NCBI GenBank assembly: GCA_051005875.1
Contig: JBPCIX010000022.1
Coordinates: 3,537-67,536, forward strand
DNA: 64,000 nucleotides
Direction: 5' to 3'
From: Actinomycetota bacterium
GTDB taxonomy: Bacteria; Actinomycetota; CADDZG01; JAHWKV01
Below are positions 16,121 to 62,854 of the stretch, piece by piece. Below the pieces are notes generated by a model. That model had not been told where the DNA came from and made no database searches. It saw only the letters and a program-made list of their open reading frames with translations. Positions within the stretch are counted from its first letter, which is position 1, and each line of letters opens with the position of its first letter. A program made the translations under genes and the position numbers.

Positions 16121-16260
16121 TCGATTCCCAAGTATTCCGGAGTGCCGGGGGGGGGAATCGAACCCCCCCAAGTATTCCGGAGTGCCGGGGGGGGAATCGA
16201 ACCTTCCCAAGTATTCCGGAGTGCCGGGGGGGGAATCGAACCCCCCTAAGTATTCCGGAG
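16121..16260 (-). repeat. three extra tandem copies of the tRNA-Leu 3' half plus trailer (39-40 bp period)
   Basis: AAGTATTCCGGAGTGCCGG starts at 16130, 16170, 16209 and 16248. Each is followed by G8-9 AATCGAACC. Only the fourth copy continues into a complete tRNA. Confidence 0.9.
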
Positions 16261-16343
16261 TGCCGGGGGGGGGAATCGAACCCCCATGGGCTTGCACCCA
16301 ATGGTGTTTGAGACCATCGCGTCTACCGTTCCGCCACCCCGGC
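16261..16343 (-). tRNA. tRNA-Leu (anticodon CAA), long variable arm
   Basis: The reverse complement is GCCGGGGTGGCGGAACGGTAGACGCGATGGTCTCAAACACCATTGGGTGCAAGCCCATGGGGGTTCGATTCCCCCCCCCGGCA. Acceptor is GCCGGGG/CCCCGGC, anticodon stem ATGGT/ACCAT with loop CTCAAAC, and T arm GGGGG-TTCGATT-CCCCC. Confidence 0.9.
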
Positions 16344-47133: not shown

Positions 47134-47372
47134 CGCGGCAGCGCTCCGAATACCTCGGCGATTTCCGGAGGCAGGGGATCGTCGAAGCTGGCGGCCATAT
47201 GAATCTTGCCGGCCAGGCGCCCGGATTTGCGCCGCGCTTTGCTTTCAGGTGGAACCAGTCTGGCCACAGTCCTACCGGAGCGAGCGATCTGGATTTCAGA
47301 AGCCTCTCCGGATTCGAGGGCGGCCACCAGCTTGGAAAGGTTTGTCTTGGCATCGTGCATGTTCACCTTCAT
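47130..47372 (-). CDS. Phd/YefM family antitoxin
   Basis: 80 aa. MKVNMHDAKTNLSKLVAALESGEASEIQIARSGRTVARLVP is the typical Phd/YefM N-terminal fold. Confidence 0.8.
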   Translation of the reverse strand: MKVNMHDAKTNLSKLVAALESGEASEIQIARSGRTVARLVPPESKARRKSGRLAGKIHMAASFDDPLPPEIAEVFGALPR

Positions 47373-48257: not shown

Positions 48258-48288
48258 CGCCTGATGCTAGCCCGAGGCCGGACATTAG

Positions 48289-48316
48289 GGAATATATCTG
48301 AAGTTATATTTCGCTC
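48289..48316. repeat. 28-bp AT-rich element, copy 1 (second copy at 60451-60476)
   Basis: GGAATATATCTGAAGTTATATTTCGCTC here compares with GGAATATCTGAAGTTATATTTCGCTC at 60451. The two are identical apart from a 2-nt AT indel. The element contains the small inverted repeat AATAT..ATATT. Confidence 0.85.
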
Positions 48317-48382: not shown

Positions 48383-48616
48383 GTGGTCATGAAGTTCACC
48401 CGCCACGCTAAGAACCGGATCAGACTGATTGCCCGCGCCGACCCGGGGGTCACGCCTGAGGCCGTTTTGTTCGGGGTTGGCAGTGCTTCCGTGCTGAGGT
48501 ACGATGACAAGGGCAATAAAGTAGTTTTGGTCGTTTTGGAGGATCGGACCGTGACCGCAGTTGTGGACGTTAAGACGGAAACGATCATTACCATCTGGGC
48601 AAATGAGTCAAGTTAA
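48383..48616 (+). CDS. DUF4258-like small protein (putative toxin of a two-gene module)
   Basis: 77 aa. The (MV)MKFTRHAKNRIR opening is typical of DUF4258. It overlaps the downstream DUF2283 gene by 14 nt. Confidence 0.6.
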   Translation: MVMKFTRHAKNRIRLIARADPGVTPEAVLFGVGSASVLRYDDKGNKVVLVVLEDRTVTAVVDVKTETIITIWANESS

Positions 48617-48854
48617 AGCGTTTTATACCTACGACGCCGAGGCGGATGTCCTTTATGCCCTGCTGGTTCCAGAAGATGAGGCCCGCATTAGTAAGACGGT
48701 TGAACTGAGTCCCACGCTCCACGTTGATCTGGATGGCGGCGGCGGCGTGGTTGGGGTTGAGATCCTATATCCAGCCTCAAGACAAATCGATCTCGTTCCC
48801 CTAAAAGACCAATTCGGAGTCGAACTACGGCTGCCCTTCTCGTTTGCTGCATAA
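48603..48854 (+). CDS. DUF2283 domain protein (putative antitoxin partner)
   Basis: MSQVKAFYTYDAEADVLYALL...VHVDLDGGGGVVGVEILYPASRQ matches the YD.EAD.LYI......D.D..G.VVGIEIL pattern. The start is trimmed to the ATG at 48603. Confidence 0.7.
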   Translation: MSQVKAFYTYDAEADVLYALLVPEDEARISKTVELSPTLHVDLDGGGGVVGVEILYPASRQIDLVPLKDQFGVELRLPFSFAA

Positions 48855-49103: not shown

Positions 49104-49688
49104 ATGAAAAAAGGCAAGAAAGCGGCGCCGGTAGTTGTTTTTATGATTATTGGAACCATCCTTGGAGCGGCCAGCCTGGCTTGGGCCTGCACTCCGGCCG
49201 CAGGGTTCGTGTCTCTCACTCAAGCCGGGCCGGTCGGCACTAAGTTCACCACCAGCACCACCGGTGTCGGCGTTTCGGAAATCCGCTGGAACAGCCTTGA
49301 CGGTCCGGTCGTAAGCACCCCCGCCGAAAGCTTTGACGGTCCGGTCGTAAGCACCCCCGCCGAAAGCCCGGGCTCGTTTGAAGTAACTGTGCCCCAGGTC
49401 GCTCCGGGTGTTTACTACCTGGTCTTCGCAACCGAAGACGCAGGCGTGGGCCGCATGGCCTTCGAGGTCACTCCCTCGGCCGGTGTTCGCTCGCCCGCTT
49501 CCGTGGTGCCCGCAGATCTTTGGAGCGGTTTCGCCTCGGGCTCACCGTCGGTAGCCCCGCAAGCCCAGGCGCCGGTATCGACCTCCAACGGCGCAGCCGC
49601 CGGCTTCGGCCTGTTGGGCGTAGGCGTGCTGATGATGTCGGGCCTTGCTCTGGTCGCCTTGCGCCGAAGCAAAGGCCGAGCGAGCTAG
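49104..49688 (+). CDS. small signal-peptide protein with AWA|CTP junction, beta-sandwich-like domain, C-terminal TM and basic tail (family copy 1)
   Basis: AAGGAG precedes the ATG. The N-terminus is MKKGKKAAPVVVFMIIGTILGAASLAWACTP and the C-terminus is NGAAAGFGLLGVGVLMMSGLALVALRRSKGRAS. It is a paralog of 62185-62838. Confidence 0.7.
   Translation: MKKGKKAAPVVVFMIIGTILGAASLAWACTPAAGFVSLTQAGPVGTKFTTSTTGVGVSEIRWNSLDGPVVSTPAESFDGPVVSTPAESPGSFEVTVPQVAPGVYYLVFATEDAGVGRMAFEVTPSAGVRSPASVVPADLWSGFASGSPSVAPQAQAPVSTSNGAAAGFGLLGVGVLMMSGLALVALRRSKGRAS
49296..49367 (+). repeat. 36-bp in-frame perfect tandem duplication inside the small surface protein gene
   Basis: [C/T]TTGACGGTCCGGTCGTAAGCACCCCCGCCGAAAGC occurs twice back to back. 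This encodes LDGPVVSTPAES then FDGPVVSTPAES. Confidence 0.9.
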
Positions 49689-49828
49689 ACGGCACTAGAG
49701 GGCTTGGGCCAAATCGGGCAACCAAGACTCGAAGAATCTCACAGGTTGGGCAAAAGGGCCCCCGTCCTGGCTCGACCCTTACCACCAACGCAAATCCACT
49801 AGTGAAGCGCGAGGGAGAACATAGGGCT

Positions 49829-52800
49829 TTGAAGACTCAAAACGCATTGCAAAGGGCGAAGGGCCCGGGGCAATCCGGATTCTCCAAAAGGGCCCGGCGC
49901 GTTGTGGCGCTCGGCGCCGCCTTCGCATTGGTGGTTCTTCCTTCGGCGGGTCCTGCGCTTGAGGGCGGCCAAGCCCCCACGCCTCGCGCCGCCAAGCCCG
50001 CAGCCCAAGCGAGCCAGCCCTCCTTGGCCCGACTAAAGGATGGCCCAAAGGCCCAAGCTAAGGCTCTTAAATCCTTCGGGAACCAGCCCCTTCGCTTTGA
50101 GCTAAACCGCGGCCAAGCCCCCAAGGAAGTCAAGTTCCTAGTCCGTACCCCAAAGCAGACCCTATTTCTTACATCGACCGAAATGATCCTGATGTCCACC
50201 GGCGGCGCGGATGAAACAGCTGCGCTCGGCAAAGGGCCGGCGCCCGTACGGATTAGCCTGGCGAAACGGGGCGCCAAGCCGAAAATCAGCGGCGTTTCGC
50301 GTCTGCCGGGCGTGAGCAACTATTTCCAGGGCCGGGACTCTAAAGCGTGGGTTACCGGGGCCCCGAGCTTCGCGAAGGTCCTTTATAAGGGCGTCTACCC
50401 CGGCATCGACCTGCTCTTTTACGAAAATCGCAAAGGCGGCGGCCTGGAGTACGACTTCCTGGTGAGCCCGGGTGCCAACCCCGCCTCGATCACTCAGTCG
50501 ATCTCGGGCGCCACCCGCCTCGGCCTTGACAAAGGCGAACTGGTGATCACCGCACCCGGCAATGAGATCCGGCAGTCGGCGCCTGTTATTTACCAGAAAA
50601 TCGACGGGAGGCGCCGGCTAATTAAGGGCGCGTACATGCTCGGCGATAGAAATAGTCTAGGGTTTCGGGTTGGGCGCTACGACGAATCAAGAACTCTCAT
50701 TATCGATCCTGTTCTGGCTTGGTCAACCCTCATGGGAGACAACGGATCCAGCGGCGATACGGGCAGCGCCTCCGACGGCTCTGGAACGGGGTCCAATCAC
50801 GGACCCCAAGTGGCTACGGATGCAAGCGGCAATGCCTACCTGGCTGGGTGGACTGCTAAATCTTTTCCGACGCAGGCCGCCTTCCAGCCCGTGCCGGCAG
50901 GCGGGTTCGTCGCCAAATTCGCCCCCAACGGGTCGCTCATCTACTCTACGTACCTTGGTGAGAGTAGTACTTTCCCTCACGACATTGCAGTTGACAGCGT
51001 CGGGAATGCATACATCGGCGGAACAACTAGTTGGTACGACTTTCCAACAACCGCCAACGCATTCCGCCCAGCCAGTCCTAGCACGATGCAACTTTCAAAA
51101 AAAGACGGTGGAGAACATGGTCCAGTGCTCGGCAGCGGCTCGCCTACAAGTTTCCTGAGTAAACTGGATATTGTTGGCCGGCTGGCCTATTCCACTTACC
51201 TCTGGCCAACCCAAGGAGACCGAGGAGGTGGCTCCGTAGACAACCTCTCGGCCGTGTCTGTAGCCGTTTCTGATGAAAAGAATGTCTTCGTAACTGGTCT
51301 GGATTTCACCGGGACCAGAAGCGGGGAAACCTGGGCGTTCCCCTACCGGGCTTGTCCTGGAGCGGACAATGAGAACGGCGGCCGCGCGGTTCCCTTCGTT
51401 GCGAAATTCGATACCGGCGTCGTCGCGGGTGTGCCTGCTGCGGCCCAGGGGTCGGTCGAAGGACCTCCCCCTTTGTTCCTCAAGTGTGGCTACGGTGGAC
51501 GTGACTTGGCCTTGCACGGTGGCTCTCTTTACGCTCTCGACGACGGCTTTGGGTCGAGAATTACGACTTCCGGCCCTCCGTACGAACCCAAAGGGGTCTG
51601 GAGACTCGGGACCGCCGACGGAAGCCCGGGCGCGCACTCAGACCTGACGGGCCTTGCAATTGCGACTTCGCCGACCGGCAGTCCTGACACCTCGGTCTAC
51701 GTGTCGAACAAAACCTCGATAACCAAGCTGGATGAGAATCTTGCGGCTGTAGAGCCCGCTTTGAGCCCTGGTTCGGGTGTGATACTAAATATTTCTGTCG
51801 ACTCCAAGGGGAAGCTTTACGCCGTTGGACAAGGACGTCTGGGCGATATTTCGACGACACCTGACGCCTACCAAAAGGAACTCCGGGGTGGCGTGCGGGA
51901 CGCCTTCGTTATGGTTTTCGATGCCGCGGGATCTAGGGTGTATTCAACATGGCTGGGGGGAAGCCCGTCTAAACCCCCGGCCCTGACGGACGCCGAGGTA
52001 CCGTGCGAACCCTTACTCACTTCTGGAGACGATCACGGAACCGGAGTCGGCGTGGACGGTCTGGGGAACTTTTTCGTGGTCGGCATCACAGTCTCTTACA
52101 ACTTTCCCGTGACCGCCAATGCGTTTCAAAAGGAAAGAAAGACTCGGTGCGTCGATGGCTCCCCGGGCGCCGATTCGTTTATGTCGGATGTGTTCGCGGC
52201 AAAATTCACCGACGCCCTGCCAAGTCTGACCGGGATAGCTCCCGAGCAAGGCTTTGTTTGTGAGCGCACCAAAGTGACCATTAAGGGTACGGGCTTTCCG
52301 GACACCCCCGCGGTCACATTTGGGGGCAGAGCAGCGGAGGTGATCGGCGTGACCCACGACCCGGACCCCGCCAAGGGCGACACCATTACCGTCATGAGCC
52401 CGACCATGGACGCCCCCGGCCCGGCGGAGGTAAAAGTGACCAGCGCTGGGGGGAACTCGTCTTCTACCGCCCTTCTGGGGAGTTTTCGATACCTTCCCGC
52501 CACGCCCCCGACAGTGCAGAGCGTTTCCCCGGTCAGTGGCAGCCCTCTCGGCGGGGAACCGGTGACGATCGCTGGAAGCTTTGCATGCGTCACGAAGATC
52601 GCCTTCGGGGATGTTCCACCGAAGGACTTTGTTTTGAGCGACGACCGAACCAAGATCACCGCCACCAGCCCGGAGCACGACCCAGGGCCGGTTCACGTTA
52701 CGGTCGCCACCGCCGCCGGAGTACCCGGTATTCCCCAATCGCTTAACGCCGACCTGTTCACCTTTGCGCCGCTGATCACGGCGGTCGATCCACCAACCGG

Positions 52801-53536
52801 GCCCACTTTGGGCGCGACCAAAGTAAGGATTGCCGGCAAAGGGTTCTTAAGGGCTACCAAGGCTGTGGCGTTCGGTGGACTGCCGGCGCCTTTCACCGTG
52901 GCGTCGGACACCGAGATCGAAGCCACCAGCCCTGCTCACCCGGCGGGCGATGTATCGGTGGCGGTCAGTACCACCGAGAATTTGCAGGCAGTCCCCAAAG
53001 TGGCCGGGGCAAACTTGTTCACTTACCTGCTTCCGAAGGTCGCAGTCCCCCTCGATGAGGACCCGGGCAAGGGAGGGACCGATGGCGGCAAGGCCATTGT
53101 TCAGCCGGTCATTCCCGGCGGTGGGACTACGTCAGCGGCGCCGGTCACCCAACCCGCCCAGGCGCCTAATCCCCAGCCTCTTGGCAATGCCCAGCCGGGC
53201 TCAATTGCTCAGCAAAATCCCTCGGCCGTCTTGAGCCCAGGCGCGGCGCCGAATCCCGGCTTTGCCTTAGCGCCGGGCGGCGCAGGCTCTCCGCTTGCTA
53301 ATCCACGAACTGCGTCCGCGGGGGTTGCGGTTGGCGGCTATCAAGACGAACCCAGTGCCGCTCCGCGCCTCGCCATGGTTGCTCTGAATGACCGGGAAGT
53401 GACGCGGGCATGCTTCATGGGCGGATCGACCCTGCTGCTCCTGCTGTTCGGGTTCTCTTTGTCATTTGCCAGACGACGACCTCTGGCGGGACATGCAGAC
53501 GCAACCGAAGCCTGCCCTGCGCCCCAGATCGCATAG
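49829..53536 (+). CDS. giant surface protein: SBBP-type beta-propeller repeats + 3-4 IPT/TIG domains + C-terminal TM anchor
   Basis: The N-terminal PLRFELNRGQAPKEVKFLVRTPKQTLFLTSTE box is typical of SBBP-repeat proteins. Repeats such as DASGNAYLAGWT, DSVGNAYIGGTTSWYDFPTTANAF and DGLGNFFVVGITVSYNFPVTANAFQ follow. IPT/TIG-like units start at ITGIAPEQG, VQSVSPVSGSPLGG and ITAVDPPTGPTLG. The tail is GGSTLLLLLFGFSLSFARRRP. The start is set to TTG 49829 (GAGGGAG 10 nt upstream). The track ORF from 49520 overlaps the previous gene. Confidence 0.75.
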   Translation: MKTQNALQRAKGPGQSGFSKRARRVVALGAAFALVVLPSAGPALEGGQAPTPRAAKPAAQASQPSLARLKDGPKAQAKALKSFGNQPLRFELNRGQAPKEVKFLVRTPKQTLFLTSTEMILMSTGGADETAALGKGPAPVRISLAKRGAKPKISGVSRLPGVSNYFQGRDSKAWVTGAPSFAKVLYKGVYPGIDLLFYENRKGGGLEYDFLVSPGANPASITQSISGATRLGLDKGELVITAPGNEIRQSAPVIYQKIDGRRRLIKGAYMLGDRNSLGFRVGRYDESRTLIIDPVLAWSTLMGDNGSSGDTGSASDGSGTGSNHGPQVATDASGNAYLAGWTAKSFPTQAAFQPVPAGGFVAKFAPNGSLIYSTYLGESSTFPHDIAVDSVGNAYIGGTTSWYDFPTTANAFRPASPSTMQLSKKDGGEHGPVLGSGSPTSFLSKLDIVGRLAYSTYLWPTQGDRGGGSVDNLSAVSVAVSDEKNVFVTGLDFTGTRSGETWAFPYRACPGADNENGGRAVPFVAKFDTGVVAGVPAAAQGSVEGPPPLFLKCGYGGRDLALHGGSLYALDDGFGSRITTSGPPYEPKGVWRLGTADGSPGAHSDLTGLAIATSPTGSPDTSVYVSNKTSITKLDENLAAVEPALSPGSGVILNISVDSKGKLYAVGQGRLGDISTTPDAYQKELRGGVRDAFVMVFDAAGSRVYSTWLGGSPSKPPALTDAEVPCEPLLTSGDDHGTGVGVDGLGNFFVVGITVSYNFPVTANAFQKERKTRCVDGSPGADSFMSDVFAAKFTDALPSLTGIAPEQGFVCERTKVTIKGTGFPDTPAVTFGGRAAEVIGVTHDPDPAKGDTITVMSPTMDAPGPAEVKVTSAGGNSSSTALLGSFRYLPATPPTVQSVSPVSGSPLGGEPVTIAGSFACVTKIAFGDVPPKDFVLSDDRTKITATSPEHDPGPVHVTVATAAGVPGIPQSLNADLFTFAPLITAVDPPTGPTLGATKVRIAGKGFLRATKAVAFGGLPAPFTVASDTEIEATSPAHPAGDVSVAVSTTENLQAVPKVAGANLFTYLLPKVAVPLDEDPGKGGTDGGKAIVQPVIPGGGTTSAAPVTQPAQAPNPQPLGNAQPGSIAQQNPSAVLSPGAAPNPGFALAPGGAGSPLANPRTASAGVAVGGYQDEPSAAPRLAMVALNDREVTRACFMGGSTLLLLLFGFSLSFARRRPLAGHADATEACPAPQIA

Positions 53537-53542
53537 GCGCCC

Positions 53543-56332
53543 TTGAGGAACAAACTTCGCTCTGGTCGGCGAGGCTGGGCCAAAAAGCTTCTAGCAACGT
53601 CGGCCCTCGGCGCCTTTGCCCTGACGAGTCTTGCGCCGCAGGCAAACGGCGCGCTGGGTAACCGCTCTCCGGAACCCGGCACGGTGGACACCGTTGCCGG
53701 TCCGGGCTACTGCTTGGGCCGCTCTGTCCTGGACCCTAAATCGCTAGGCATCAGGTCTCTCGCCGTGAGCCCCGAGGGGCAGCTTGTCGTCGACGCCGGC
53801 CCCCCGAACTCAGGTCTTTTCGGCGTGGTACCTGCTGAGGGCTACGGCGTTTATCGTGCCAGGCCCAAAACCGTGTATTCCCAGGCTCAGTTGCTCCAGA
53901 AAAATCGAGACAACCTGTATAAGCCCTGGGCTCTTCGAGGCGGAAGCGCGCCGGGCCTCGGCCTCATGCGCTTGCCGAGAATGGACGCCAAGCAGGTTGC
54001 AACTGCCGATGAACGTGCCATCCTGATGCCGCATATTTACGATTCAGGCCTCCGCCGAGATTACTCTCCAGACGCAAATTTCACCCCTTTTCTTGGAAAC
54101 ACCGATGGCGCGCCACGTTCGCTCGGAGACGGCGCCCTTGCGGCCAAGGCCGGCTTCACGGCGATTCAGGCTCTTGCGATGGACGAACAACTCAACATTT
54201 ATGTGGCCGACCAGGCCGGAACTAAAGCCAAGAATGCCCAAATACGGTTTGTTAATAACAACTTCATACCCAAAGCGGTCCCGTCGGCCATCATCCTATA
54301 TGCGGGCACTTCTCAAGAGCGAGCCGTTAAACCAGGCGCTATCGACACCGTCGCCGGTAAAGGGCGCAAGCCAAATGCCGGAGATGACGGCCCCGCCCTT
54401 CAAGCAGGCATTGGAACCACCTCATCTATGGTGGTCGCCGGGAAACGGCTCTACATCGCCTCATACATAAAAGGGGGTGCCGGACGTCGGGGGGACGCCC
54501 GTGTGAGGATGGTGAACCTGGGGTCCGAGCAGCTCGAGGCTCACGGCCTTGTCATCAAGCCGGGGACCATAGCCACCGTTGCCGGCGGGCATGGCACCGG
54601 TTTCGCCGGTGACGGGGGCCCGGCCCGGAGAGGCTCCTTCTCACAAATAACGGGAATGGCGGCCGACGCCGATGGGAACCTTTACCTGGCCGACCGCGAC
54701 CACCACCGGATCCGCAGGGTCGACTCGAAGGGCAGGATCACGACCGTTGCCGGTACCGGCGGCGCCGGTCCGCGCGACGGAGGATTCAACGGCAACAATT
54801 TGCCGGCTGTAAAGGCCAAGCTCAACCGGCCGTTTGACGTGAAAACCGGGCCGCAAGGACGCCTGTACATCACCGATGACATGAACGGTCAGATCCGATA
54901 CATCGACTCGGGAGGAATAATTCACGCCGCCTTTGGCAGCGGAATTGGCCTGACGTGGACCTGTCGGCCTCAAAAATCGTTGCCCGCCTCTGGGCCGGAA
55001 CGAGGCGCAGAGGCAAAGCGGGACCAAGTAAGGCAGGGACCACTCGGGAGCGTGGACCTTCCAACCCGGTCTGAACTGCCGACTAACTTCGGGGGCCCCT
55101 CAAGCCTGGCTACTGGAGGTCCGAGGGGCGTTTACGTCGCCACGCCGGAGTTGGGCCAGGTGAAGCTCATCGAGCCATCGGGCGTTGTCAGCACCGTGGC
55201 TGGGGACGGCCGGGATGTGTGCCCGCCCGCCAAAACGTGCCCGCCTTCGGGCGGCGACGGAGGCCCTGCTCTGTCGGCCCGCCTAGACGCACCGGCCCTG
55301 GTGGCGGCGAGCCCCCGCAAGGGTTTCTACGTATTCGACAGGAAAGAGAACCGGATTCGCTTCGTGAACACTAGCTTGAAGCCCCTGCGGATCAACGGCG
55401 TCAAAGTCGCTCCCGGCGCAATTGCGGGCATCGCCGGGGCCCAGGGGGACGCGCCCGGTGCCACCACTGCGCCCGGTGCGCCCGGTGCGCCCGGTGCGCC
55501 TGATCCCAAGAAGGCCGTCTCCGCGGCCGTGCCGGCCGTCAGTTCGCTTGCTGCTGATCGCGCAGGCAACCTCTTCATAGCCGAGCCGGACAGCAAACGA
55601 ATTAGGCGAATTGATAGCGCCGGCGCCATCAGCACATTTATCGGCGAAGGTGGTGACTTCAACGTGGGATCGTCTGGCTGCTGCACGTCTCCTTCGGTGG
55701 TCGCCCCTGGCCCAAGAGGGAGCCTCTACATTTACGACAAAGTCGCCCTGAAGGTCTTTCTCGCCAACAGGGGGACTTCTCAAGTGACGGTGCACGGCCA
55801 GAAGGTTGCCGCAGGCGCCATTGCCCCGGTCGCCGGCAACGGTAAGACGGGATTTGGCGGCGATAACGGACCGGCCCTGACAGGCTCCTTCACGGGGCCT
55901 GAAGCTATGACTACCGATGGGAAGGGCAATCTTTATATCGTCGATCGGCCGGAGGCAACTGTTCGTAAGGTCGACTCTAAGGGTGTCATCACTACCGTCG
56001 CGGGGGCCGGCGGCACCCTAAGCATCTCCGCCGCTTTGGGCGCCGGCGGGTTCAACGGCGACGGGTTAAAGGGCCAGCTGACCGCCTTCAGCAATCCCTC
56101 GGGGATCGCCCTCGACTCCTGCGGCAATCTGCTGATAGCCGACTCCAACAACGACCGTGTCCGGCGGCTTAACTTGAGGCTACCGTGCGGGGTCTCGGCC
56201 GGCCAGACTTCCGGCGCCACTTCGTCCTCGGGGTTGCCGCCTGCACTGCTCATCGGCGGCCCAGCCGTCCTCGTGCTTGCTGGAGTGATCTATCTGCTCG
56301 TTAGGCGGACCCGCTCTTCAGACTCTGAGTAA
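53543..56332 (+). CDS. NHL-repeat beta-propeller surface protein with C-terminal TM anchor
   Basis: The signal is KKLLATSALGAFALTSLAPQANG. There are many NHL-like units (LYLADRDHHRIRRVDSKGRITTVAGTG, LNRPFDVKTGPQGRLYITDDMNGQIRYID, LLIADSNNDRVRRLNL). The tail is LLIGGPAVLVLAGVIYLLVRRTRSSDSE. It starts 7 nt after the SBBP gene stop. Confidence 0.8.
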   Translation: MRNKLRSGRRGWAKKLLATSALGAFALTSLAPQANGALGNRSPEPGTVDTVAGPGYCLGRSVLDPKSLGIRSLAVSPEGQLVVDAGPPNSGLFGVVPAEGYGVYRARPKTVYSQAQLLQKNRDNLYKPWALRGGSAPGLGLMRLPRMDAKQVATADERAILMPHIYDSGLRRDYSPDANFTPFLGNTDGAPRSLGDGALAAKAGFTAIQALAMDEQLNIYVADQAGTKAKNAQIRFVNNNFIPKAVPSAIILYAGTSQERAVKPGAIDTVAGKGRKPNAGDDGPALQAGIGTTSSMVVAGKRLYIASYIKGGAGRRGDARVRMVNLGSEQLEAHGLVIKPGTIATVAGGHGTGFAGDGGPARRGSFSQITGMAADADGNLYLADRDHHRIRRVDSKGRITTVAGTGGAGPRDGGFNGNNLPAVKAKLNRPFDVKTGPQGRLYITDDMNGQIRYIDSGGIIHAAFGSGIGLTWTCRPQKSLPASGPERGAEAKRDQVRQGPLGSVDLPTRSELPTNFGGPSSLATGGPRGVYVATPELGQVKLIEPSGVVSTVAGDGRDVCPPAKTCPPSGGDGGPALSARLDAPALVAASPRKGFYVFDRKENRIRFVNTSLKPLRINGVKVAPGAIAGIAGAQGDAPGATTAPGAPGAPGAPDPKKAVSAAVPAVSSLAADRAGNLFIAEPDSKRIRRIDSAGAISTFIGEGGDFNVGSSGCCTSPSVVAPGPRGSLYIYDKVALKVFLANRGTSQVTVHGQKVAAGAIAPVAGNGKTGFGGDNGPALTGSFTGPEAMTTDGKGNLYIVDRPEATVRKVDSKGVITTVAGAGGTLSISAALGAGGFNGDGLKGQLTAFSNPSGIALDSCGNLLIADSNNDRVRRLNLRLPCGVSAGQTSGATSSSGLPPALLIGGPAVLVLAGVIYLLVRRTRSSDSE

Positions 56333-56361
56333 GGGCCCTCAACGTCCAGGGGCCGCAATGA
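56332..56361 (+). pseudogene. orphan 3' tail of a vapC gene fused to the NHL stop codon
   Basis: AGGGCCCTCAACGTCCAGGGGCCGCAATGA matches AGGGCCCTCAACGTCCAGGGCCCGCAATAG at 57979-58008 at 27 of 30 positions. Both encode RALNVQGPQ*. The copy here begins at the last base of the NHL TAA stop. Confidence 0.75.
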
Positions 56362-56547
56362 CCCCTCTCGCCTATTGCGCCAAAGGGCGGAAGCGATCGA
56401 AATAACCTTTCCCTCGTCCTCCGAGCCGCAGAACTGGAAGCCGTACTCCCGGCACATCTGGCCGAATTCCTGTGGCTTGCCGGTCACTCTGCATCATCAC
56501 CTTTTAGTGGGCAGGAATCAGGGGGGCTGCAGGCGTAGTATTGGGGT

Positions 56548-56760
56548 ATGCGAACTGACTTCAAGGCAGTAGTCAAAAGGGACGACAAGTGGTGGATCGG
56601 ATGGGTCGAGGAAATTTCGGGAGTGAATTCGCAAGGTGAAACTCGCGACGAGCTCATGGAGAATCTGAAATCTGCTTTGTTCGAAGCCCTTGAAATGAAT
56701 AGGGAGTCAGCCCGCAGCGCCGCGGGCGAGGAGTTTGAAGAAGTAACAATCTCGACTTGA
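56548..56760 (+). CDS. HicB-like (UPF0150) antitoxin, no recognisable HicA partner
   Basis: 70 aa. FKAVVKRDDKWWIGWVEEISGVNSQGETRDELMENLKSALFEALE fits the small HicB fold pattern. Confidence 0.65.
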   Translation: MRTDFKAVVKRDDKWWIGWVEEISGVNSQGETRDELMENLKSALFEALEMNRESARSAAGEEFEEVTIST

Positions 56761-56787
56761 AACGCCGGTCGTCCCAGGAGGTTAACA

Positions 56788-57222
56788 ATGACAAAGCTTC
56801 GGCCTTATCTGAATTTTGAAGGAGACGCTGAGGAAGCATTCAACTTCTACAGGTCCGTGTTCGGCGGCGAGTTCGTGTCGTTTTTCCGGTTCAAGGATTT
56901 TCCGATGGAAGGCGTGACCGTACCCGTCGAGGATGAAGGCAAGATGGTGCACATCAGCTTGGAAATCGCCGACGACCAAATCTTGATGGCCAGCGACGCA
57001 CTTCCGGCTCTCGGACAAAAGCTGGTTCAAGGCAACAACGCCCACATCTCGGTTCACCCAGAAAGCCGGGAAGAGGCCGACAGAATCTTCAGCGGTCTCT
57101 CAGACGGCGGCACCGTCGAGATGCCGATCGGCGACCAGCCGTGGGGCGATTATTACGGAAGCTTCAAGGACAGGTTCGGCGTCCAGTGGATGGTTAATTA
57201 CAGCCCGCCGCGGGAACCTTAG
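56788..57222 (+). CDS. VOC/glyoxalase-superfamily protein, PhnB-like
   Basis: AGGAGG RBS. LRPYLNFEGDAEEAFNFYRSVFGGEF...MVHISLEI.DQILMASD...MPIGDQPWGDYYGSFKDRFGVQWMVNY is the classic PhnB-like pattern. Confidence 0.8.
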   Translation: MTKLRPYLNFEGDAEEAFNFYRSVFGGEFVSFFRFKDFPMEGVTVPVEDEGKMVHISLEIADDQILMASDALPALGQKLVQGNNAHISVHPESREEADRIFSGLSDGGTVEMPIGDQPWGDYYGSFKDRFGVQWMVNYSPPREP

Positions 57223-57311
57223 TAGGAGTCTTAAGGCCCCGAGGCCGACGTCGCGGGCGCGGAGGAACGCCTGGGTGGCAGCCGCCCGGCTATGTGCTAC
57301 CATTGTGCGTC

Positions 57312-57602
57312 ATGGGCCAAACTAAGTCCGTCGGAATCAGGCAGCTCAGACAGAACCTCAGCGTCTACATCAGCAGGGTGCGTAAGGGAGAGCGGTATCA
57401 GGTCACCGAAAGAGGAGTTCCGGTAGCCGTTCTGGGCCCCATCTCTGGATCCCACGGCACCCTGGACCGCCTGGCGGCACAGGGCCTCGTTCAGCGGGCA
57501 TCCAGGGATCCTGCCTCTTTAGGCCCCCCGCCTTCTCCTCACAAGAAGCCTAAGATGTCGGCCAGCAAGGCCCTGGCCCAGCTTCGCGCTGATGACCGAT
57601 GA
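57312..57602 (+). CDS. Phd/YefM family antitoxin
   Basis: MGQTKSVGIRQLRQNLSVYISRVRKGERYQVTERGVPVAVLGP. It overlaps the vapC start by 11 nt. Confidence 0.8.
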   Translation: MGQTKSVGIRQLRQNLSVYISRVRKGERYQVTERGVPVAVLGPISGSHGTLDRLAAQGLVQRASRDPASLGPPPSPHKKPKMSASKALAQLRADDR

Positions 57603-58008
57603 AGATGGGGCCCAGGCTCTCACGTACCTGGATTCGTCTGCGATCGTCAAGCTCATTCTTCCGGAACCCGAAAGCGGGGCTCTGTCGGAGTTTCTAGCGG
57701 GCAGAAACCTGGTAAGCAGCCGGCTGGGTGAAATTGAAAGCCGCAGAGCCATAATGCTGACGGGGAGCGACGAGGAAGTGACGGCACGCGAGCAAGAGGT
57801 GCTCGACAGCATTGACCTTATCGAGATATCCCCCACGATTGCGAGTGATGCGGCTGGACTTGAGCCGCCCGCACTGCGAACTCTCGACGCCATCCATCTG
57901 GCAACGGCTCTGGCGCTCGGAGAGGACCTCGACTGTGTGGTTGTTTACGATCACCGGCTTGCTGCCGCTACGCGGGAAAGGGCCCTCAACGTCCAGGGCC
58001 CGCAATAG
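57592..58008 (+). CDS. vapC: VapC PIN-domain toxin
   Basis: It has YLDSSAIVKL (first acidic residue), a central E, and LRTLDAIHLATAL. It ends in RALNVQGPQ. Confidence 0.8.
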   Translation: MTDEDGAQALTYLDSSAIVKLILPEPESGALSEFLAGRNLVSSRLGEIESRRAIMLTGSDEEVTAREQEVLDSIDLIEISPTIASDAAGLEPPALRTLDAIHLATALALGEDLDCVVVYDHRLAAATRERALNVQGPQ

Positions 58009-58023
58009 AAGAATGAAACTTTG

Positions 58024-58446
58024 TCAGCTCGTATCTTCTAGTTCGCGCAGCAGTCGCAGGAAACCGGCGGGGTAGATAACCTCGACATCCTCATTCTCGA
58101 GACCCGCGGCATGAAAGTGGCGGTCCCGGCTGACAAGGTACATCGCTTCAGCCCTGACCGCCAGGTCAGCAAGATAGTCGTCATCCAGATCGCCGGGGAC
58201 CCGCCGCGGCGGGTCGGCGTTGTCCGGATAACCCAATCCTTCCGTTTCAAGCTCTTCGGCGGCCTGATTTATCTCCTCATGGGTAATTCCATATCGCCCA
58301 GCAATTCGGGGCCGCCCCATCACCTCGATGAACTCCCTGATCAGCTCCGGGCAGGTCGCGAGCTCAAAGACTCCTTCCCGCCATAGATTGAGAAGCTCAT
58401 GGGCGGCACCGGAGTGCGCGAGGGTTCCGGCGACCAACGCATCCAC
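58024..58446 (-). CDS. PIN-family toxin (TIGR00305-like), N-terminus compromised
   Basis: The track start is GTG 58446 (MDALVAGTLAHSGAAHELLNLWREGVFELATCPELIREF). The expected N-terminal strand IKVAID lies upstream, between the RHH stop (58468-58470, same reading frame) and the GTG. Only an ATA codon (58464) is available there. Confidence 0.6.
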   Translation of the reverse strand: MDALVAGTLAHSGAAHELLNLWREGVFELATCPELIREFIEVMGRPRIAGRYGITHEEINQAAEELETEGLGYPDNADPPRRVPGDLDDDYLADLAVRAEAMYLVSRDRHFHAAGLENEDVEVIYPAGFLRLLRELEDTS

Positions 58447-58467
58447 GTCGATTGCAACTTTTATCGG

Positions 58468-58707
58468 TCATTTCCGGCGAGGGGTGCGCCGGGCCTTTCG
58501 TACCTCTTCCAGTGCCTCTCCGGCAGCCTGAGCGGCAGGCTTTTCTTCGAGCGACGCCTTTGCTCTGATTCGCTCGAGAGGATCCAGGCCTTGCCGTAGA
58601 GCTTCTTCAAGTACGTCCGACTGAGAGCGGCCCATTCTTGCCGCCTTCACCCGAACTCGCCGGAGCAAATCCTCCTCCACGAGAAGAGTCGTCTTGAATC
58701 TTGCCAT
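58468..58707 (-). CDS. ribbon-helix-helix (CopG/VapB-like) antitoxin
   Basis: Trimmed to MARFKTTLLVEEDLLRRVRVKAARMGRSQSDVLEEALRQGL, the RHH pattern. The upstream part of the 164-aa track ORF looks non-coding. Confidence 0.7.
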   Translation of the reverse strand: MARFKTTLLVEEDLLRRVRVKAARMGRSQSDVLEEALRQGLDPLERIRAKASLEEKPAAQAAGEALEEVRKARRTPRRK

Positions 58708-58822
58708 AAAACCATAATACCGTAAAGACATACGACAGGCGAAGATACGGCGCACGAACCTAGCCGCAGTTAGAGCCGTGATGATTGGGGAAGGAGGGAT
58801 GATGACGGAAGTTGAATGGACC

Positions 58823-59233
58823 TTACGCCTTGGTTCCCCAAACGGTCCAACCCAGAAAGTTTGCAGCTTTTGATTGTCTGACGTCGTAGGTGATAAATGG
58901 CAAGAGTCCACCGCCGGCTTGATCGGCAGCCCCGAGGTGAAGAGCGTCGAGGGTACGCACACCGGTTCTTTCGGCTATTTCCGCCGCGCTTTCGCATACG
59001 GCCTTTGTGAGTGTGACTTTCTTAACTGCTGCCCAATCCCGGGAGAATTGATCTCGCGCTTTGGCGTAGTCCTTTCCTTTTAACCCTAGAGCCAGGTTGC
59101 GTCTAACTTCGACTTCGGTGTGTCGCCCGGAAATCCAATCGGTGTCCTTTTTCAGGAGCTTAAGGCAAGCTGTAAAGTCCGCCTCCCGGAAATAGATCTT
59201 GAGGAGCGCGCTGGAATCTACATAAACGCTCAC
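58823..59233 (-). CDS. vapC: VapC PIN-domain toxin
   Basis: It has MSVYVDSSALLKIY and RTLDALHLGAA. The GTGA start-stop overlap with the upstream antitoxin is intact. Confidence 0.8.
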   Translation of the reverse strand: MSVYVDSSALLKIYFREADFTACLKLLKKDTDWISGRHTEVEVRRNLALGLKGKDYAKARDQFSRDWAAVKKVTLTKAVCESAAEIAERTGVRTLDALHLGAADQAGGGLLPFITYDVRQSKAANFLGWTVWGTKA

Positions 59234-59511
59234 TCTGCCCGGTCTTCTCGCAGGAGGTCTTCCACTGTTATCGATGCCCGGAAGCCTTTGTGGTCGGAAA
59301 GGTCAAGTTTCCCGGCGCCCGGGGAAATCCACCCTTGACGAATGCCTCGCCGGACAAGGTCGTCGGCAGTTTCGGGCGGCACGGAAGGGTCGGCCGGACC
59401 GATTAAGGCCTTTGGCCGTCCCCGGCTCGTTACGGTAATGACTTCGCCATCCTCAGCTCGATCCAGATACTCGGAAAGCCGGGCCTTTAAGGTTCTGACG
59501 GGCACCTCCAT
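59230..59511 (-). CDS. Phd/YefM-type antitoxin
   Basis: MEVPVRTLKARLSEYLDRAEDGEVITVTSRGRPKALIGP. Confidence 0.75.
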   Translation of the reverse strand: MEVPVRTLKARLSEYLDRAEDGEVITVTSRGRPKALIGPADPSVPPETADDLVRRGIRQGWISPGAGKLDLSDHKGFRASITVEDLLREDRAE

Positions 59512-59623
59512 GTAGTCACACTAACACAATAGATGACCACATTGGGGAACAGGCAATTTGCTGAGGGGCGAAGACGGCGTCGAAGGCTGCTTTGGGTTAG
59601 TCAGACTCTGGTAGGGTTTCGGT

Positions 59624-59848
59624 ATGACCAGCAAACGTAAAATCTCCATTTCGCTCGACCCCGAATTGGTGGACGAACTCGAGGCCCAGGGTGTTCCTCT
59701 GTCCAGTCAGATCAACCGTGTCCTGAGCGACGAACTGGCGCGGCGCCGTCGAAGCAGGCTACTTAAGGACCTCCTCGGGGAGATGGATCACAGGGTTGGG
59801 AAGGTCGACGAAGCCCTGATCGAAAAGTACGAGGAGTTGCTCAGGTGA
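59624..59848 (+). CDS. RHH-type antitoxin
   Basis: MTSKRKISISLDPELVDELEAQGVPLSSQINRVLSDEL. It has a GTGA overlap with the downstream PIN gene. Confidence 0.7.
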   Translation: MTSKRKISISLDPELVDELEAQGVPLSSQINRVLSDELARRRRSRLLKDLLGEMDHRVGKVDEALIEKYEELLR

Positions 59849-60264
59849 CCGGTGGCCTGGTGCTCGATGCGGAGGCGATTTCCGCGCTGGCGCGGGAGAA
59901 CTCCCCCGGCAACCAGGAGGTCCGGGCGGCGATGACCGCTGCTGCGCGGCTGGGGAAGGACGTGATAGTTGCGACCGTCACACTGGCGGAACTTTACCGG
60001 GGCCACGGCCACAATCAGATCGTCGACTCGTGCCTGTCCCGGGAGACTGGAATTGCTACCCGTGACACGGACAAAGAGTTTGCACGCCTGGTCGGCGGAC
60101 TGCTCGCCGGGGCCGGCATGGAATCGGACAACCTTGCCGACGCTCATGTTGTAGCTGCTGCCCTGGAGGCCGGACGGTGTGTCGTACTGACCGGCGACCG
60201 GGACGACATCCAGGCTCTTGCAGCGCCGTACCCGAACATCATCATCCGGGCGCTTCCAACCTGA
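59845..60264 (+). CDS. PIN-domain toxin
   Basis: It has LVLDAEAISALA, TVTLAELYRG and a DAHVVAAALEAG..VLTGDRDD pattern. Confidence 0.75.
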   Translation: MTGGLVLDAEAISALARENSPGNQEVRAAMTAAARLGKDVIVATVTLAELYRGHGHNQIVDSCLSRETGIATRDTDKEFARLVGGLLAGAGMESDNLADAHVVAAALEAGRCVVLTGDRDDIQALAAPYPNIIIRALPT

Positions 60265-60310
60265 AGCCGGCGGGGCCTTGCCCGTCCTTCGCCCCTCGAA
60301 TGAATTCTTG

Positions 60311-60447
60311 CCGCTCCTCAACGACTCGATCGCCGATACCGGTAACGACCGTGTTCGCCGCCTTAACCTGGCCCCGCCATGCGGCGGTTCATCGGCAGCG
60401 GCGGCGTCGGCCGGTCCCAAGTCGTCGGGCCGGCTCGTCCCTCTAAA
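60311..60447 (+). pseudogene. C-terminal fragment of an NHL-repeat protein (truncated paralog of 53543-56332)
   Basis: PLLNDSIADTGNDRVRRLNLAPPCGGSSAAAASAGPKSSG aligns with LLIADSNNDRVRRLNLRLPCGVSAGQTSGATSSSG of the intact gene. I estimate nucleotide identity at roughly three quarters over the core by eye. The TM anchor is missing, and similarity stops a few nt before the 26-bp repeat. Confidence 0.7.
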
Positions 60448-60450
60448 TAA

Positions 60451-60476
60451 GGAATATCTGAAGTTATATTTCGCTC
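60451..60476. repeat. 26-bp AT-rich element, copy 2 (see 48289-48316)
   Basis: GGAATATCTGAAGTTATATTTCGCTC lies directly after the truncated NHL fragment. The hairpin ACCGGCC-ccc-GGCCGGT follows at about 60505-60521. Confidence 0.85.
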
Positions 60477-60673
60477 AGATTTGTGATGCATTAGTCTTGT
60501 TTTACCGGCCCCCGGCCGGTTTCAAGTCTTCGCACCTCCAAGCGTTTGAACGACATGGAACGCCCAATCGGCACATATCTGTACGGCCGAAACATAATGA
60601 CCCCGCAAGAATTCCTCACGGCCCCGAACTCGCTAGATCACAATCAGGTCAAGATTCCCTAAATAATTAGCGA

Positions 60674-60679
60674 TATAAT
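60674..60679 (+). promoter_or_regulatory. perfect TATAAT box 7 nt upstream of the Fic ATG (possible leaderless transcript)
   Basis: GCGATATAATCTACTAATG. There is no Shine-Dalgarno sequence between the box and the ATG at 60686. Confidence 0.35.
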
Positions 60680-60685
60680 CTACTA

Positions 60686-61840
60686 ATGCTTCTTCCCTTC
60701 AAGGTAACGTCCGTCACCACGGCGGGGCTGGGCGAATTGGACGAATGGCGTTCCAGGCTGGACTATAAGGAGCCGGTTCCCAGGTCTTGGGCCGGGCGAC
60801 TGAGGCGGGACCTGGAGGCGGAGGCTGTGGCCGCGTCCACGATTATGGAGGGTGTCCCGGTTACCTTGGAGGATGTTCGGCGCATTCTTGCCGGTGACCA
60901 AGCCGTACCGGTAGGAAATGATGAAAGGCAGTTGGTCCTGGGGTACGAGCAGGCCATGAACTTCGTTCTGAGAAGAGCCGACGACGCCACCTTCCAGTGG
61001 AACCGGGAGCTAGTAATTGGCCTGCACGACCGCGTTCTGGCGGGCCGGTTCGACTTGGGGGCCGGCGGATTTCGCTCTGGCCAAACAAGGGTCGTCGATG
61101 TTTCGTCGCAAAGGACCCTGTTTCTTCCTCCCGCCTCTGGAAGCCTTCCCGGCCTGGCAGATGAGATTTGCGAGAGGGTAAGCCGGCCTGAACTCCACCC
61201 TGCACTTGCTTCGGCGTGGGTTCACATCGCGCTGGCGGCTATCCATCCTTTCAAAGATGGAAACGGCAGGACTTGTCGAGTGCTGGCCTCATTGGCCATG
61301 TATAGGGGTGGATTTAGGCGCAAGGAGTTCACTTCGCTCGAGGAGTGGTGGGGTAGTCACAAAGCCGACTACTATACGGCGTTCAAGTGTCTGGGCGATC
61401 AATTCACCCGTGGAGCCGACGTCACGCCGTTCGTAGAGACCCATGTTCAAGCTCAACTAAGCCAGGTGAGAGGACTCGACCTCAGGGAGCGAGTCGAGCG
61501 CAAGATTTGGACTGTTCTTGAGGATCTGGCCGAGCAATCGGGCCTGGCCCGCCGCGCGGCAAATGCTTTGTGGGACTCCTTCTTTGGAAGGGACGTTTCC
61601 GCCGGCTACTATCGGGCGCTGGCTGATGTCAGCCCCGCAACCGCAACCAACGATCTTGCCTTGGCCTCGGCGGTTGGGTTTTTAAGAGCTAAGGGTCGGG
61701 CCCGGGCAAGAGTCTATTTGGCCGGAGACAAACTCTACGAAAGCGTTGCCGCTGCATTGGGCCTTAATACAGGTTTGGATGCCCAGGCCCTGAAGGCGTC
61801 CATAATCGAATCCCTGACTTCCCGGGAAATAGAGCGGTAA
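60686..61840 (+). CDS. Fic family protein with intramolecular inhibitory motif
   Basis: The canonical Fic motif is HPFKDGNGRTCR (HxFx[DE]GNGRxxR). The N-terminal segment STIMEG matches the [ST]xxxE[GN] inhibitory-helix motif. Confidence 0.85.
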   Translation: MLLPFKVTSVTTAGLGELDEWRSRLDYKEPVPRSWAGRLRRDLEAEAVAASTIMEGVPVTLEDVRRILAGDQAVPVGNDERQLVLGYEQAMNFVLRRADDATFQWNRELVIGLHDRVLAGRFDLGAGGFRSGQTRVVDVSSQRTLFLPPASGSLPGLADEICERVSRPELHPALASAWVHIALAAIHPFKDGNGRTCRVLASLAMYRGGFRRKEFTSLEEWWGSHKADYYTAFKCLGDQFTRGADVTPFVETHVQAQLSQVRGLDLRERVERKIWTVLEDLAEQSGLARRAANALWDSFFGRDVSAGYYRALADVSPATATNDLALASAVGFLRAKGRARARVYLAGDKLYESVAAALGLNTGLDAQALKASIIESLTSREIER

Positions 61841-62184
61841 ATGCTTGAGGAAACGCCTTCGTTTGGTTGCCAACAGACGTTCCCCCTTTCGCCATGAAGA
61901 CCCATGTTACCGACGCGCGCCGACAGCCTTACGAGTACCGCTTCATGCTGTTCGTTCGCTGGTTGTAGTACACCAGGCAGACGTGTCCGCAAGGACCAAG
62001 TCGGAAATGGGAGACCATGACGACCACCGACGCGCTCATAATTTCATCGATGTAAGGCGTGATTTGTGACATTTTGCACTATTGCGTTGGCGGAAAATGC
62101 CCTCAATAATGATTGCGAAGGTAATTTGTCGGGTCGGGGCTCAGGAATTCGGCGCCGAGAAATATATTAGGAAGAAGGTAACCA

Positions 62185-62838
62185 ATGAACAAAAGGTCGA
62201 AGGCAGTTGTAGCCACTTTGGCGCTAGCGATCCTTGCAGGATCGGCCGCAGCGTGGGCATGCACCCCCCAGTACACGATTTTTCCTCTTTCCCTACAGGC
62301 GGGCGCGCCCGGCAGTCAGGTCGTAGTCACCGGCCAAGCCGATGCAAAACGGGCTGTGGAGGTACGCTGGGACAGTGCTGAGGGCCCTGTTTTGGGCTCG
62401 GCAAGCGCAGCGGGAGAGGACCAGGAATTCCGGTACTCGGTTCCGGTGACCATTCCCGAGGCTTCACCAGGCGTCCATTACTTGATGGTCCTGGCAAAAA
62501 GAGATCCCGGTGTTCACCCCTGGGAAGTCGACGCCCAAGGCCGGTGGGTCGCACGGGCAGCTTTCAATGTTTTGACGTCAGCCCCCTCCGGCCAATCCAC
62601 CGCGGGCAGTCAGGGGCCCATAACGGCAGACTATCCTGATCTGTGGAGAGGCTTTCAAGGCGGCGCCCAACTTGGCAATTCAGGGATCACCGACGCCGGG
62701 CGAAGCGCTGGGGGCAACGGACAAGCAGCTCTGGGGATGGCCTTTCTCGTGCTCGGATTCGTTGGAGTCTCGTCGGTAGCCGGCTTGGGATTAGCGGGCC
62801 GGTCACGCAGACGCCGAGCCTCAAACGCAGGCGAATAG
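62185..62838 (+). CDS. small signal-peptide protein with AWA|CTP junction, C-terminal TM and Arg-rich tail (family copy 2)
   Basis: The N-terminus is MNKRSKAVVATLALAILAGSAAAWACTP. It has VEVRWDS.EGPVLG and PGVHYLMVLA (compare EIRWNSLDGPVV and PGVYYLVFAT in copy 1). The tail is NGQAALGMAFLVLGFVGVSSVAGLGLAGRSRRRRASNAGE. Confidence 0.7.
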   Translation: MNKRSKAVVATLALAILAGSAAAWACTPQYTIFPLSLQAGAPGSQVVVTGQADAKRAVEVRWDSAEGPVLGSASAAGEDQEFRYSVPVTIPEASPGVHYLMVLAKRDPGVHPWEVDAQGRWVARAAFNVLTSAPSGQSTAGSQGPITADYPDLWRGFQGGAQLGNSGITDAGRSAGGNGQAALGMAFLVLGFVGVSSVAGLGLAGRSRRRRASNAGE

Positions 62839-62854
62839 GCTCGCACGAAAGGTA

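Follow-up and report, generated by a model that had tools for sequence, protein, structure and literature searches.

The window analysed here, a stretch of 64 kb in all, carries on its plus strand an NHL-repeat surface protein gene with a C-terminal membrane anchor (53543-56332), which encodes 929 aa from a TTG start (882 aa in the database gene model). At its end lies a short orphan vapC tail (56331-56361, plus strand), a 29-nt block that is identical at 28 positions to the 3′ end of a downstream vapC gene and then closes with a TGA stop. A 186-nt spacer (56362-56547) with no protein-family match in any frame separates this tail from a solitary hicB-like gene (DUF7387/UPF0150; 56548-56760, plus strand, 70 aa) without hicA. 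A gene for a VOC/glyoxalase-fold (YjdN/PhnB-like) protein follows at 56788-57222 on the plus strand, and the phd1 and vapC1 genes stand next on the same strand. The phd1 gene (57312-57602) encodes a phd/YefM-type antitoxin (PF02604, TIGR01552) from the ATG at 57312, in an ORF that is open from a GTG at 57294, and it overlaps the start of vapC1 by 11 nt. The vapC1 gene (57592-58008) encodes a PIN-domain toxin of 138 aa (Pfam PF01850, E=7.6e-11, above the family cut-off). Aligning it with 16 homologs, we found the acidic residues D14, E49, D99 and D120 to be invariant, while its tail aligns to the family C-terminus xGLxVxxPx with an invariant P137. With a PIN domain that holds the conserved acidic residues and a cognate antitoxin gene directly upstream and overlapping, vapC1 is predicted to be an intact PIN-domain toxin gene. 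Its last 31 nt (57978-58008) represent the source-like copy of the repeat; vapC1 thus lies downstream of the orphan tail, 1.65 kb away and on the same strand.

A sequence-only reading of this DNA had claimed a 30-nt match to the vapC 3′ end, including an in-frame RALNVQGPQ-stop. Recomputing the match, we obtained the same values: AGGGCCCTCAACGTCCAGGGGCCGCAATGA (56332-56361) and AGGGCCCTCAACGTCCAGGGCCCGCAATAG (vapC1, 57979-58008) are identical at 27 of 30 positions, and both copies translate to RALNVQGPQ followed by a stop, i.e. the last nine vapC codons and the stop codon. The longest ungapped block pairs 56331-56359 with 57978-58006 (28/29). In a self-BLAST of the 64-kb window, no other dispersed (non-tandem) repeat was as strong as this one (E = 2.3e-6), and none of 100 dinucleotide shuffles gave a match to it. 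A chance origin of the match is excluded. The homology of the orphan block to the vapC coding region is therefore beyond chance, and no PIN domain can be encoded there, the body of the gene being missing and the frame closed. The three differences between the two tails are all silent (GGC>GGG for Gly; TAG>TGA for the stop). Simulating three random substitutions, we found an all-silent outcome with P of about 0.011-0.014, a figure that concerns three positions and weakens if TAG versus TGA arose by a 1-nt deletion (CAAT[A]GA) instead of two substitutions. Silent-only differences fit a divergence that took place while the tail still belonged to a working gene. In the family alignment RALNVQGPQ falls on the conserved vapC C-terminus, so the block is native to vapC and foreign behind the NHL gene.

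The claimed abutment of the NHL stop codon and the vapC 3′ fragment is real. The homology begins at 56331, one base before the start given by the sequence-only reading, so the second and third bases of the NHL stop codon (TAA, 56330-56332) fall inside the vapC-derived block and the codon straddles its left edge. Both edges are sharp: in an anchored-extension test against random window segments, the block could not be lengthened significantly on either side. Its right edge lies at the stop codon of vapC, where a gene copy placed between other flanks should end. Read directly from the sequence, the orphan frame is closed by a TGA (56326-56328) two codons upstream of the block. A longer, gapped homology into the last NHL codons was rejected; the local alignment does run leftward and gains only 2 score points, and the anchored-extension scores on this side were equalled by 29-49% of the random window segments. 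We also set aside the 'DSE' C-terminal extension of the NHL protein as evidence of a fusion. It is uninformative because NHL orthologs carry anything from 3 to about 30 residues past the membrane anchor. Judged from these sequence features, the join of the NHL gene and the vapC tail is best read as a rearrangement junction.

The repeat has two copies in the 64-kb window. We found no occurrence of the 29-30-nt block in the GTDB representative genomes or in the JGI metagenome contigs, and among the 6.1 million Logan contigs of run X1, where the genome stands at about 30x, alignments are confined to the two known places. A widespread REP/MITE element unrelated to vapC, which would have undone the sequence-only reading, is thus ruled out. 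The orphan tail does share with palindromic REP/MITE repeats a short GC-rich sequence, a hairpin potential and a position beside gene ends, but those repeats occur in many copies per genome with unrelated flanks, and here there are two copies only, one of them coding. We find it scarcely credible that the junction is an artefact, whether through coincidental similarity or through wrong assembly across a short repeat. In favour of such an error, the 70-kb contig comes from a metagenome. Against it stand the shuffles and the self-BLAST (0/100; E = 2e-6), the distinct flanks of each copy, and the reproduction of the junction in an independent 13,901-nt contig, a Logan contig (k=31) of 13.9 kb that runs through both copies at an even depth of about 31x. 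Joints deleting the 1,647-bp unit between the copies were absent from the contigs of runs X1-X4, as far as contigs, which can miss rare variants, report them; the contigs of run X2 cover neither copy.

Relatives of the locus are distant, and none of the collections searched yielded a close one. UvrB of this uncultured lineage is at best 69-70% identical to that of Acidimicrobiia MAGs, and the closest known vapC and NHL relatives show 55% protein identity. No relatives were found in the GTDB genomes searched with the vapC query. The vapC1 product as delimited here is absent from the contig index, although an entry identical to it at 100% (P0001) came up in the protein search. Around the closest vapC homologs, no gene linkage in common with this locus was seen. 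In the closest NHL ortholog the sequence past the stop codon is unrelated, and what distant relatives have in common with the surface cluster is limited to the NHL gene and a weak match to a TIG domain. Upstream of the hicB homologs of other genomes, the 186-nt spacer has no conserved counterpart; these homologs are also solitary, and their conserved upstream stretch covers only roughly 18 nt before the start codon. Neither the spacer nor its antisense ORF gave a Pfam/NCBIfam match even at E=10, and we discarded a hicA pseudogene or a transposase (rve) remnant as their content.

Downstream of vapC1, further toxin-antitoxin (TA) genes are crowded together. A module of an RHH antitoxin (58468-58707) and a PIN_3 toxin (58024-58446) occupies 58024-58707 on the minus strand, convergent with vapC1 and with 15 nt between the two stop codons. 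A second phd (59230-59511) and vapC (58823-59233) pair follows on the minus strand (58823-59511), a distant paralog of phd1/vapC1 (32% aa identity for vapC and 40% for phd). At 59624-60264 on the plus strand, a CcdA-like antitoxin gene (59624-59848; PF07362, E=1.8e-6) precedes a gene for a weakly PIN-like product of 139 aa (59845-60264; PIN_3 E=0.027, under the family cut-off). Behind this PIN-like gene sits an NHL 3′ relic (60329-60442, plus strand), the second gene-tail relic in this block. It keeps the last blade motif IADxGNDRVRRLNLxxPCG and the linker, without the membrane anchor (tblastn, 58% over 38 aa, E=2.7e-5; 57 nt at 72%). An outer pair of direct repeats of roughly 28 nt, the 23/28-nt repeat ATATCTGAAGTTATATTTCGCTC, was noted at 48294-48316 and 60454-60476. 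In total, the region of 46.7-60.3 kb holds five PIN-type genes and about seven TA-type modules, and one PIN gene in this 14-kb stretch has no canonical start codon, the expected start being a CTG in a CTGA overlap. This stretch is a spot of TA accumulation and erosion of a kind already described in other bacteria. The ORFs scanned in 46-64 kb yielded neither an integrase nor a recombinase or transposase, and around the junction we found neither a known RNA family nor a tRNA target.

Performing tblastn with vapC1 over the 64-kb window, we found no other vapC1-derived sequence but two remote matches. One is the paralog at 58823-59233 (32% aa). The other, at 16804-17007, is 31% identical over 71 aa (E=0.025) and lies far from the surface cluster; further vapC-derived sequence upstream of 49104, which the sequence-only reading had suggested looking for, comes down to this weak match. 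A phd0 relic was likewise rejected, as the sole extra phd1 match is a low-complexity Ala/Pro region of the NHL gene in the gene's own frame.

On balance, we consider it probable that the block at 56331-56361 is the non-functional relic of another vapC gene (vapC0), closely related to vapC1, and that a deletion or rearrangement fused it to the NHL gene end. A phd0-vapC0 module would formerly have stood behind the NHL gene, with vapC0 a close relative or duplicate of vapC1, and the relic would be its last nine codons and stop. A single deletion or rearrangement may have taken the phd0 antitoxin and vapC0 codons 1 to about 129 together, and such a joint loss would be the only route to lose an antitoxin-toxin pair without toxin release. 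The leftover tail would then have been joined to the NHL end, and the NHL TAA would have been made across the junction from a T and the AA of the vapC block. The TA-rich spot with its NHL 3′ relic, CTG-start PIN gene and hicB without hicA supports the relic. From the 31 nt, with no intact or partial vapC0 or phd0 seen in tblastn, we infer a whole vapC0, a deletion as the type of event and the direction of that event. A copy of about 90-97% similarity with unrelated flanks presupposes that a stretch the size of a module was duplicated or that a nearly identical module was acquired separately. The sequence-only reading had instead the surface cluster, or the segment 56362-57978, inserted or recombined at a TA locus; nothing shows this, and deletion of most of a second phd-vapC module explains the same structure with no insertion. 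Its idea that TA genes act as recombination or anchoring points was generalised from one junction, in a region (46-64 kb) whose scanned ORFs include no recombinase.

Other histories could leave a similar block. A direct templated copy would need no vapC0 at any time: during break repair or a replication template switch at the NHL gene end, about 30 nt of the vapC1 3′ end would have been copied as filler DNA from a template 1.65 kb away. The very short and highly identical block with sharp edges on both sides, the nearby source in the same orientation and the lack of any other vapC0 or phd0 trace in the tblastn search of the window all suit such copying, and the segment to be copied folds into a strong GC hairpin (7-bp stem, -14.7 kcal/mol) of the kind that stalls polymerases. 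A random template switch, however, would not respect the vapC stop codon that forms the right edge, and all-silent differences (P about 0.01) are unexpected in neutral filler. To our knowledge, the insertion of about 30 templated nt at repair junctions is not a well-documented class of event in bacteria. We regard this route as unlikely. The block could instead have been kept behind the NHL gene for a function, the hairpin of an exapted vapC tail acting as a terminator or mRNA-stabilising stem, or the block serving as a regulatory target in common with vapC1. The tail does stand directly after the stop codon that closes a three-gene surface operon, and the 29-mer of the vapC1 copy, taken by itself, forms a stable GC stem (z = -3.5). 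In the orphan, though, the single internal difference in the stem weakens it (-10.8 versus -14.7 kcal/mol), and in a 50-nt context the orphan folds no better than shuffled sequence (z = +0.75). Despite the hairpin, neither copy has a U-tract or a terminator call, and there is no Rfam family match. A functional role is thus very improbable.

Site-specific recombination appears slightly less likely still than templated copying. It would have brought in a 1,647-bp circle (spacer, hicB, VOC, phd, vapC) through a core of roughly 29 bp over the vapC 3′ end, which would be doubled at the ends of the insert, as attL/attR or in an integrase-less cassette moved in trans. TA modules are common cargo of cassette-type elements. 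As in the attL/attR pairs of elements that target gene 3′ ends, two sharp-edged direct repeats of about 30 nt are present, one of them ending an intact gene, and they bracket a compact unit. The core has a 7-8-7 inverted-repeat layout (GGGCCCT-N8-AGGGCCC), like tyrosine recombinase core sites. Yet GGGCCC is palindromic, and any pair of such hexamers makes an inverted repeat automatically. Unlike in those elements, the orphan copy lies upstream of the intact gene and not downstream of an inserted element, the bracketed unit is just 1.65 kb, and none of the ORFs scanned in 46-64 kb showed a domain of an integrase, recombinase or transposase. The 29-mer, as read from its sequence, holds neither integron-type core motif (GTTRRRY/RYYYAAC), and its absence elsewhere in three collections gives no sign of a family of such sites. 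This reading also needs a prior vapC-tail-like target with an in-frame stop behind the NHL gene, which itself needs the relic explanation. A bolder version is a long shot: the 29-bp block (a 7-8-7 GC palindrome over the vapC stop) would be the core of an integrase-less 1.65-kb TA cassette (hicB-VOC-phd-vapC) moved in trans by an unlinked recombinase, and the outer repeats would mark a nested event of the same kind.

The probable relic of a lost vapC0 resembles the eroded type II TA loci of Photorhabdus. There, TA systems cluster in small chromosomal spots of high turnover and are lost by deletion or toxin inactivation (pseudogenisation), and short toxin-derived DNA remnants stay behind outside any ORF (Belot et al., Mol Biol Evol 2026, PMC13617665). 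That work compared many genomes of a gammaproteobacterium, whereas ours concerns one uncultured lineage, and the remnant here is just 31 nt, fused to the stop codon of an unrelated gene.

Annotation should place no gene on the fragment, nor on the ORF that runs across it in antisense (56290-56487). As the NHL stop codon spans the junction, the present C-terminus of the NHL protein may be secondary. The finding marks one rearrangement junction in an Acidimicrobiia-like chromosome, an ordinary kind of genomic scar that adds little beyond bookkeeping. Wider interest attaches only to the improbable cassette: if true, a cassette moved in trans together with a nested event would be a new mobility system of the cassette type, moving TA modules in an uncultured lineage of actinobacteria.

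The NHL-repeat surface-protein ORF (53543-56332) stops at a TAA (56330-56332), and the sequence-only reading had placed the 3′ end of a vapC gene directly behind this stop. That description is correct: over 30 nt from 56332, 27 positions agree with the final nine codons and stop of vapC1, the nearby intact toxin gene, and both copies translate as RALNVQGPQ-stop. No window shuffle reproduced the match, and the pair was the top-scoring dispersed repeat when the 64 kb were compared with themselves by BLAST (E = 2.3e-6). We refine its start to 56331, where the longest ungapped block begins (56331-56359 versus 57978-58006; 28/29 identical), which puts the final two bases of the NHL TAA inside the vapC-derived block. 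The left edge of this orphan tail (56331-56361) is thus the NHL stop codon, assembled across the junction (T + AA), and the right edge is the vapC stop codon. Performing an anchored-extension test, we found no significant similarity beyond 56331 on the left or 56359/56361 on the right; random window segments equalled the flank scores in 29-100% of trials. A gapped extension past the block edge was discarded as noise by the same test.

By its predicted features, vapC1 (57592-58008) is an ordinary vapC gene, encoding a PIN domain (PF01850, E = 7.6e-11). A phd/YefM antitoxin gene (phd1, 57312-57602) overlaps its start, and none of its four acidic residues varies when the protein is aligned with 16 homologs. 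In that alignment RALNVQGPQ falls on the C-terminal family motif xGLxVxxPx, with P137 invariant; therefore, this end is native to vapC and foreign behind NHL. The orphan tail has no useful coding capacity, as a TGA two codons upstream closes its frame and a window search found no other vapC1-like sequence nearby. The only other vapC1 matches in the window were a 32%-identical paralog (58823-59233) and a weak one at 16804-17007 (E = 0.025).

Four metagenome runs, X1 to X4, were searched as assembled (Logan) contigs. The sediment metagenome X1 contains 97% of this region's words at about 31x depth. Querying all 6.1 million X1 contigs with 91 nt around the vapC1 tail returned one 13,901-nt contig, matched in two places, which are the known copies only; nothing matched in X2-X4. 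This contig, from an independent assembly, covers 49769-63669 unbroken and thereby bears out the order NHL, tail, hicB, VOC, phd, vapC. The repeat core is also absent from GTDB (one genome per species) and from JGI metagenome contigs. A dispersed repeat is thereby ruled out, including the widespread REP/MITE element that, according to the sequence-only reading, would have refuted it. Among the best-supported window-versus-X1 differences listed, just two fall between 49.8 and 63.3 kb, C>T at 56378 and A>G at 57970, each within 20 nt of a vapC-tail repeat copy. More than 35 differences cluster at 63376-63800, in a Kelch-repeat surface gene running off the window.

The genes polA, gltB, dnaE, uvrB and rpsA, with trp and his genes, place the window in the core chromosome. 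The best UvrB matches, in Acidimicrobiia MAGs, reach only 69-70% identity; the window therefore belongs to an uncultured, poorly sampled actinobacterial lineage. Apart from a 100% identical database entry, the best vapC1 homolog is 55% identical, as is that of the NHL protein. The 250 nt past the stop of the best NHL ortholog are unrelated, and the gene contexts of the closest vapC homologs have nothing in common with this locus.

TA-type modules lie densely packed between 46.7 and 60.3 kb: phd-PIN (46741-47372, minus strand), a 77-aa ORF with no family match overlapping a DUF2283-domain gene (48383-48854), a lone hicB-like gene (56548-56760), phd1-vapC1, RHH-PIN_3 (58024-58707, minus), phd2-vapC2 (58823-59511, minus), and a CcdA-like gene with a weakly PIN-like gene (59624-60264). 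Signs of decay recur here. At 46741-47133, the PIN gene (PF01850, E = 1.3e-15) lacks an ATG/GTG/TTG codon at the position predicted for its start and reads CTGA in place of the usual ATGA start/stop overlap; either translation begins at CTG, or loss of the start codon has inactivated the toxin. A second NHL gene 3′ relic (60329-60442; IADTGNDRVRRLNLAPPCG..., no membrane anchor; 58% over 38 aa, E = 2.7e-5) lies directly behind the PIN-like gene 59845-60264, mirroring the PIN tail behind the NHL gene at 56331-56361. The hicB-like gene has no hicA partner, and the 186-nt spacer in front of it matches no family in any frame and shows no conservation upstream of hicB homologs in other genomes. The 70-aa hicB-like product is 74-82% identical to proteins from Acidobacteria, Actinomycetota, Trueperaceae and other phyla, and the homologs whose contexts we inspected also stand alone.

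Several further repeats were noted. A 23-nt AT-rich direct repeat, ATATCTGAAGTTATATTTCGCTC, occurs in two identical copies at 48294-48316 and 60454-60476, 12,160 nt apart, and grows to 28 nt (GGAAT(AT)ATCTG...) with a 2-nt indel. The pair brackets the surface-protein genes and the entire TA block, its second copy lying about 10 nt past the NHL relic; it may be an att-like site, an operator or chance. The X1 assembly graph branches at 48269-48298 (51-nt tip, depth 16 versus 28-33, unrelated left flank). Ahead of the Fic gene, a 46-nt sequence (60547-60592) recurs at another locus where neither flank is the same, at genome-like depth in X1 and X2, and so is a two-copy element of the same organism. 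Genes 49104-49688 and 62185-62838 encode paralogous small secreted/anchored proteins (33% identity over 218 aa, E = 3e-17), each heading a group of large beta-propeller surface-protein genes that flank the TA block; the former carries a 36-nt tandem duplication (49293-49368) where X1 contigs break or vary. Elsewhere, the 3′ end of tRNA-Leu(caa) (16260-16343, minus strand) with a 13-nt trailer forms four tandem copies at 16127-16343 (39-nt unit, 94% matches), which looks like repeated integration/excision or slippage at the end of a tRNA gene. Tandem 27/54/108-nt repeats at 14736-15103 encode a GGxGNDxI-type nonapeptide array that looks RTX/hemolysin-type and calcium-binding.

How did the tail arise? 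Three differences separate the copies, GGC>GGG (Gly) and TAG>TGA (stop to stop), and three random substitutions in 30 nt kept peptide and stop in only 1.1-1.4% of simulation trials. Such silent-only differences fit divergence while the tail still belonged to a working vapC, a point that weakens if TAG/TGA is a 1-nt deletion. Templated filler copied directly from vapC1 at a repair junction appears rather doubtful. For the vapC1 tail, folding gives a perfect 7-bp GC stem (-14.7 kcal/mol). The inverted repeat exists because GGGCCC is self-complementary and the coding sequence holds two such hexamers. The lone internal change of the orphan tail falls in this stem (-10.8 kcal/mol), its folding in context is no better than shuffles, and the vapC-tail repeat has neither a U-tract or terminator call nor an Rfam family; an exapted, functional hairpin is very improbable.

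Insertion of the 1,647-bp hicB-VOC-phd-vapC unit by site-specific recombination, leaving an att-like duplication, is also unlikely. No integrase or transposase domain was found among the ORFs scanned in 46.7-60.3 kb. With the junction reassembled in X1, an artefact is scarcely credible. We modestly favor the orphan tail as what remains of a second vapC (vapC0), closely related to vapC1 and fused to the NHL end by one event. A single deletion or rearrangement would have removed its antitoxin gene phd0 and most of vapC0 together, and would have joined the leftover tail to the NHL gene end. The earlier proposals that TA genes act as recombination anchors and that the surface-protein cluster was inserted at a TA locus go beyond this evidence.

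The relic model matches the known erosion of chromosomal TA systems, which gather in spots of high turnover and frequently disappear through deletion or toxin pseudogenisation, with DNA remnants staying behind (PMC13617665). The sole reading of wider interest, that the 29-bp core is the core of a trans-mobilised TA cassette, is a long shot. In summary, the NHL/vapC-tail junction is real, correctly described and unique, and we read it as a commonplace scar of TA erosion in a new lineage.
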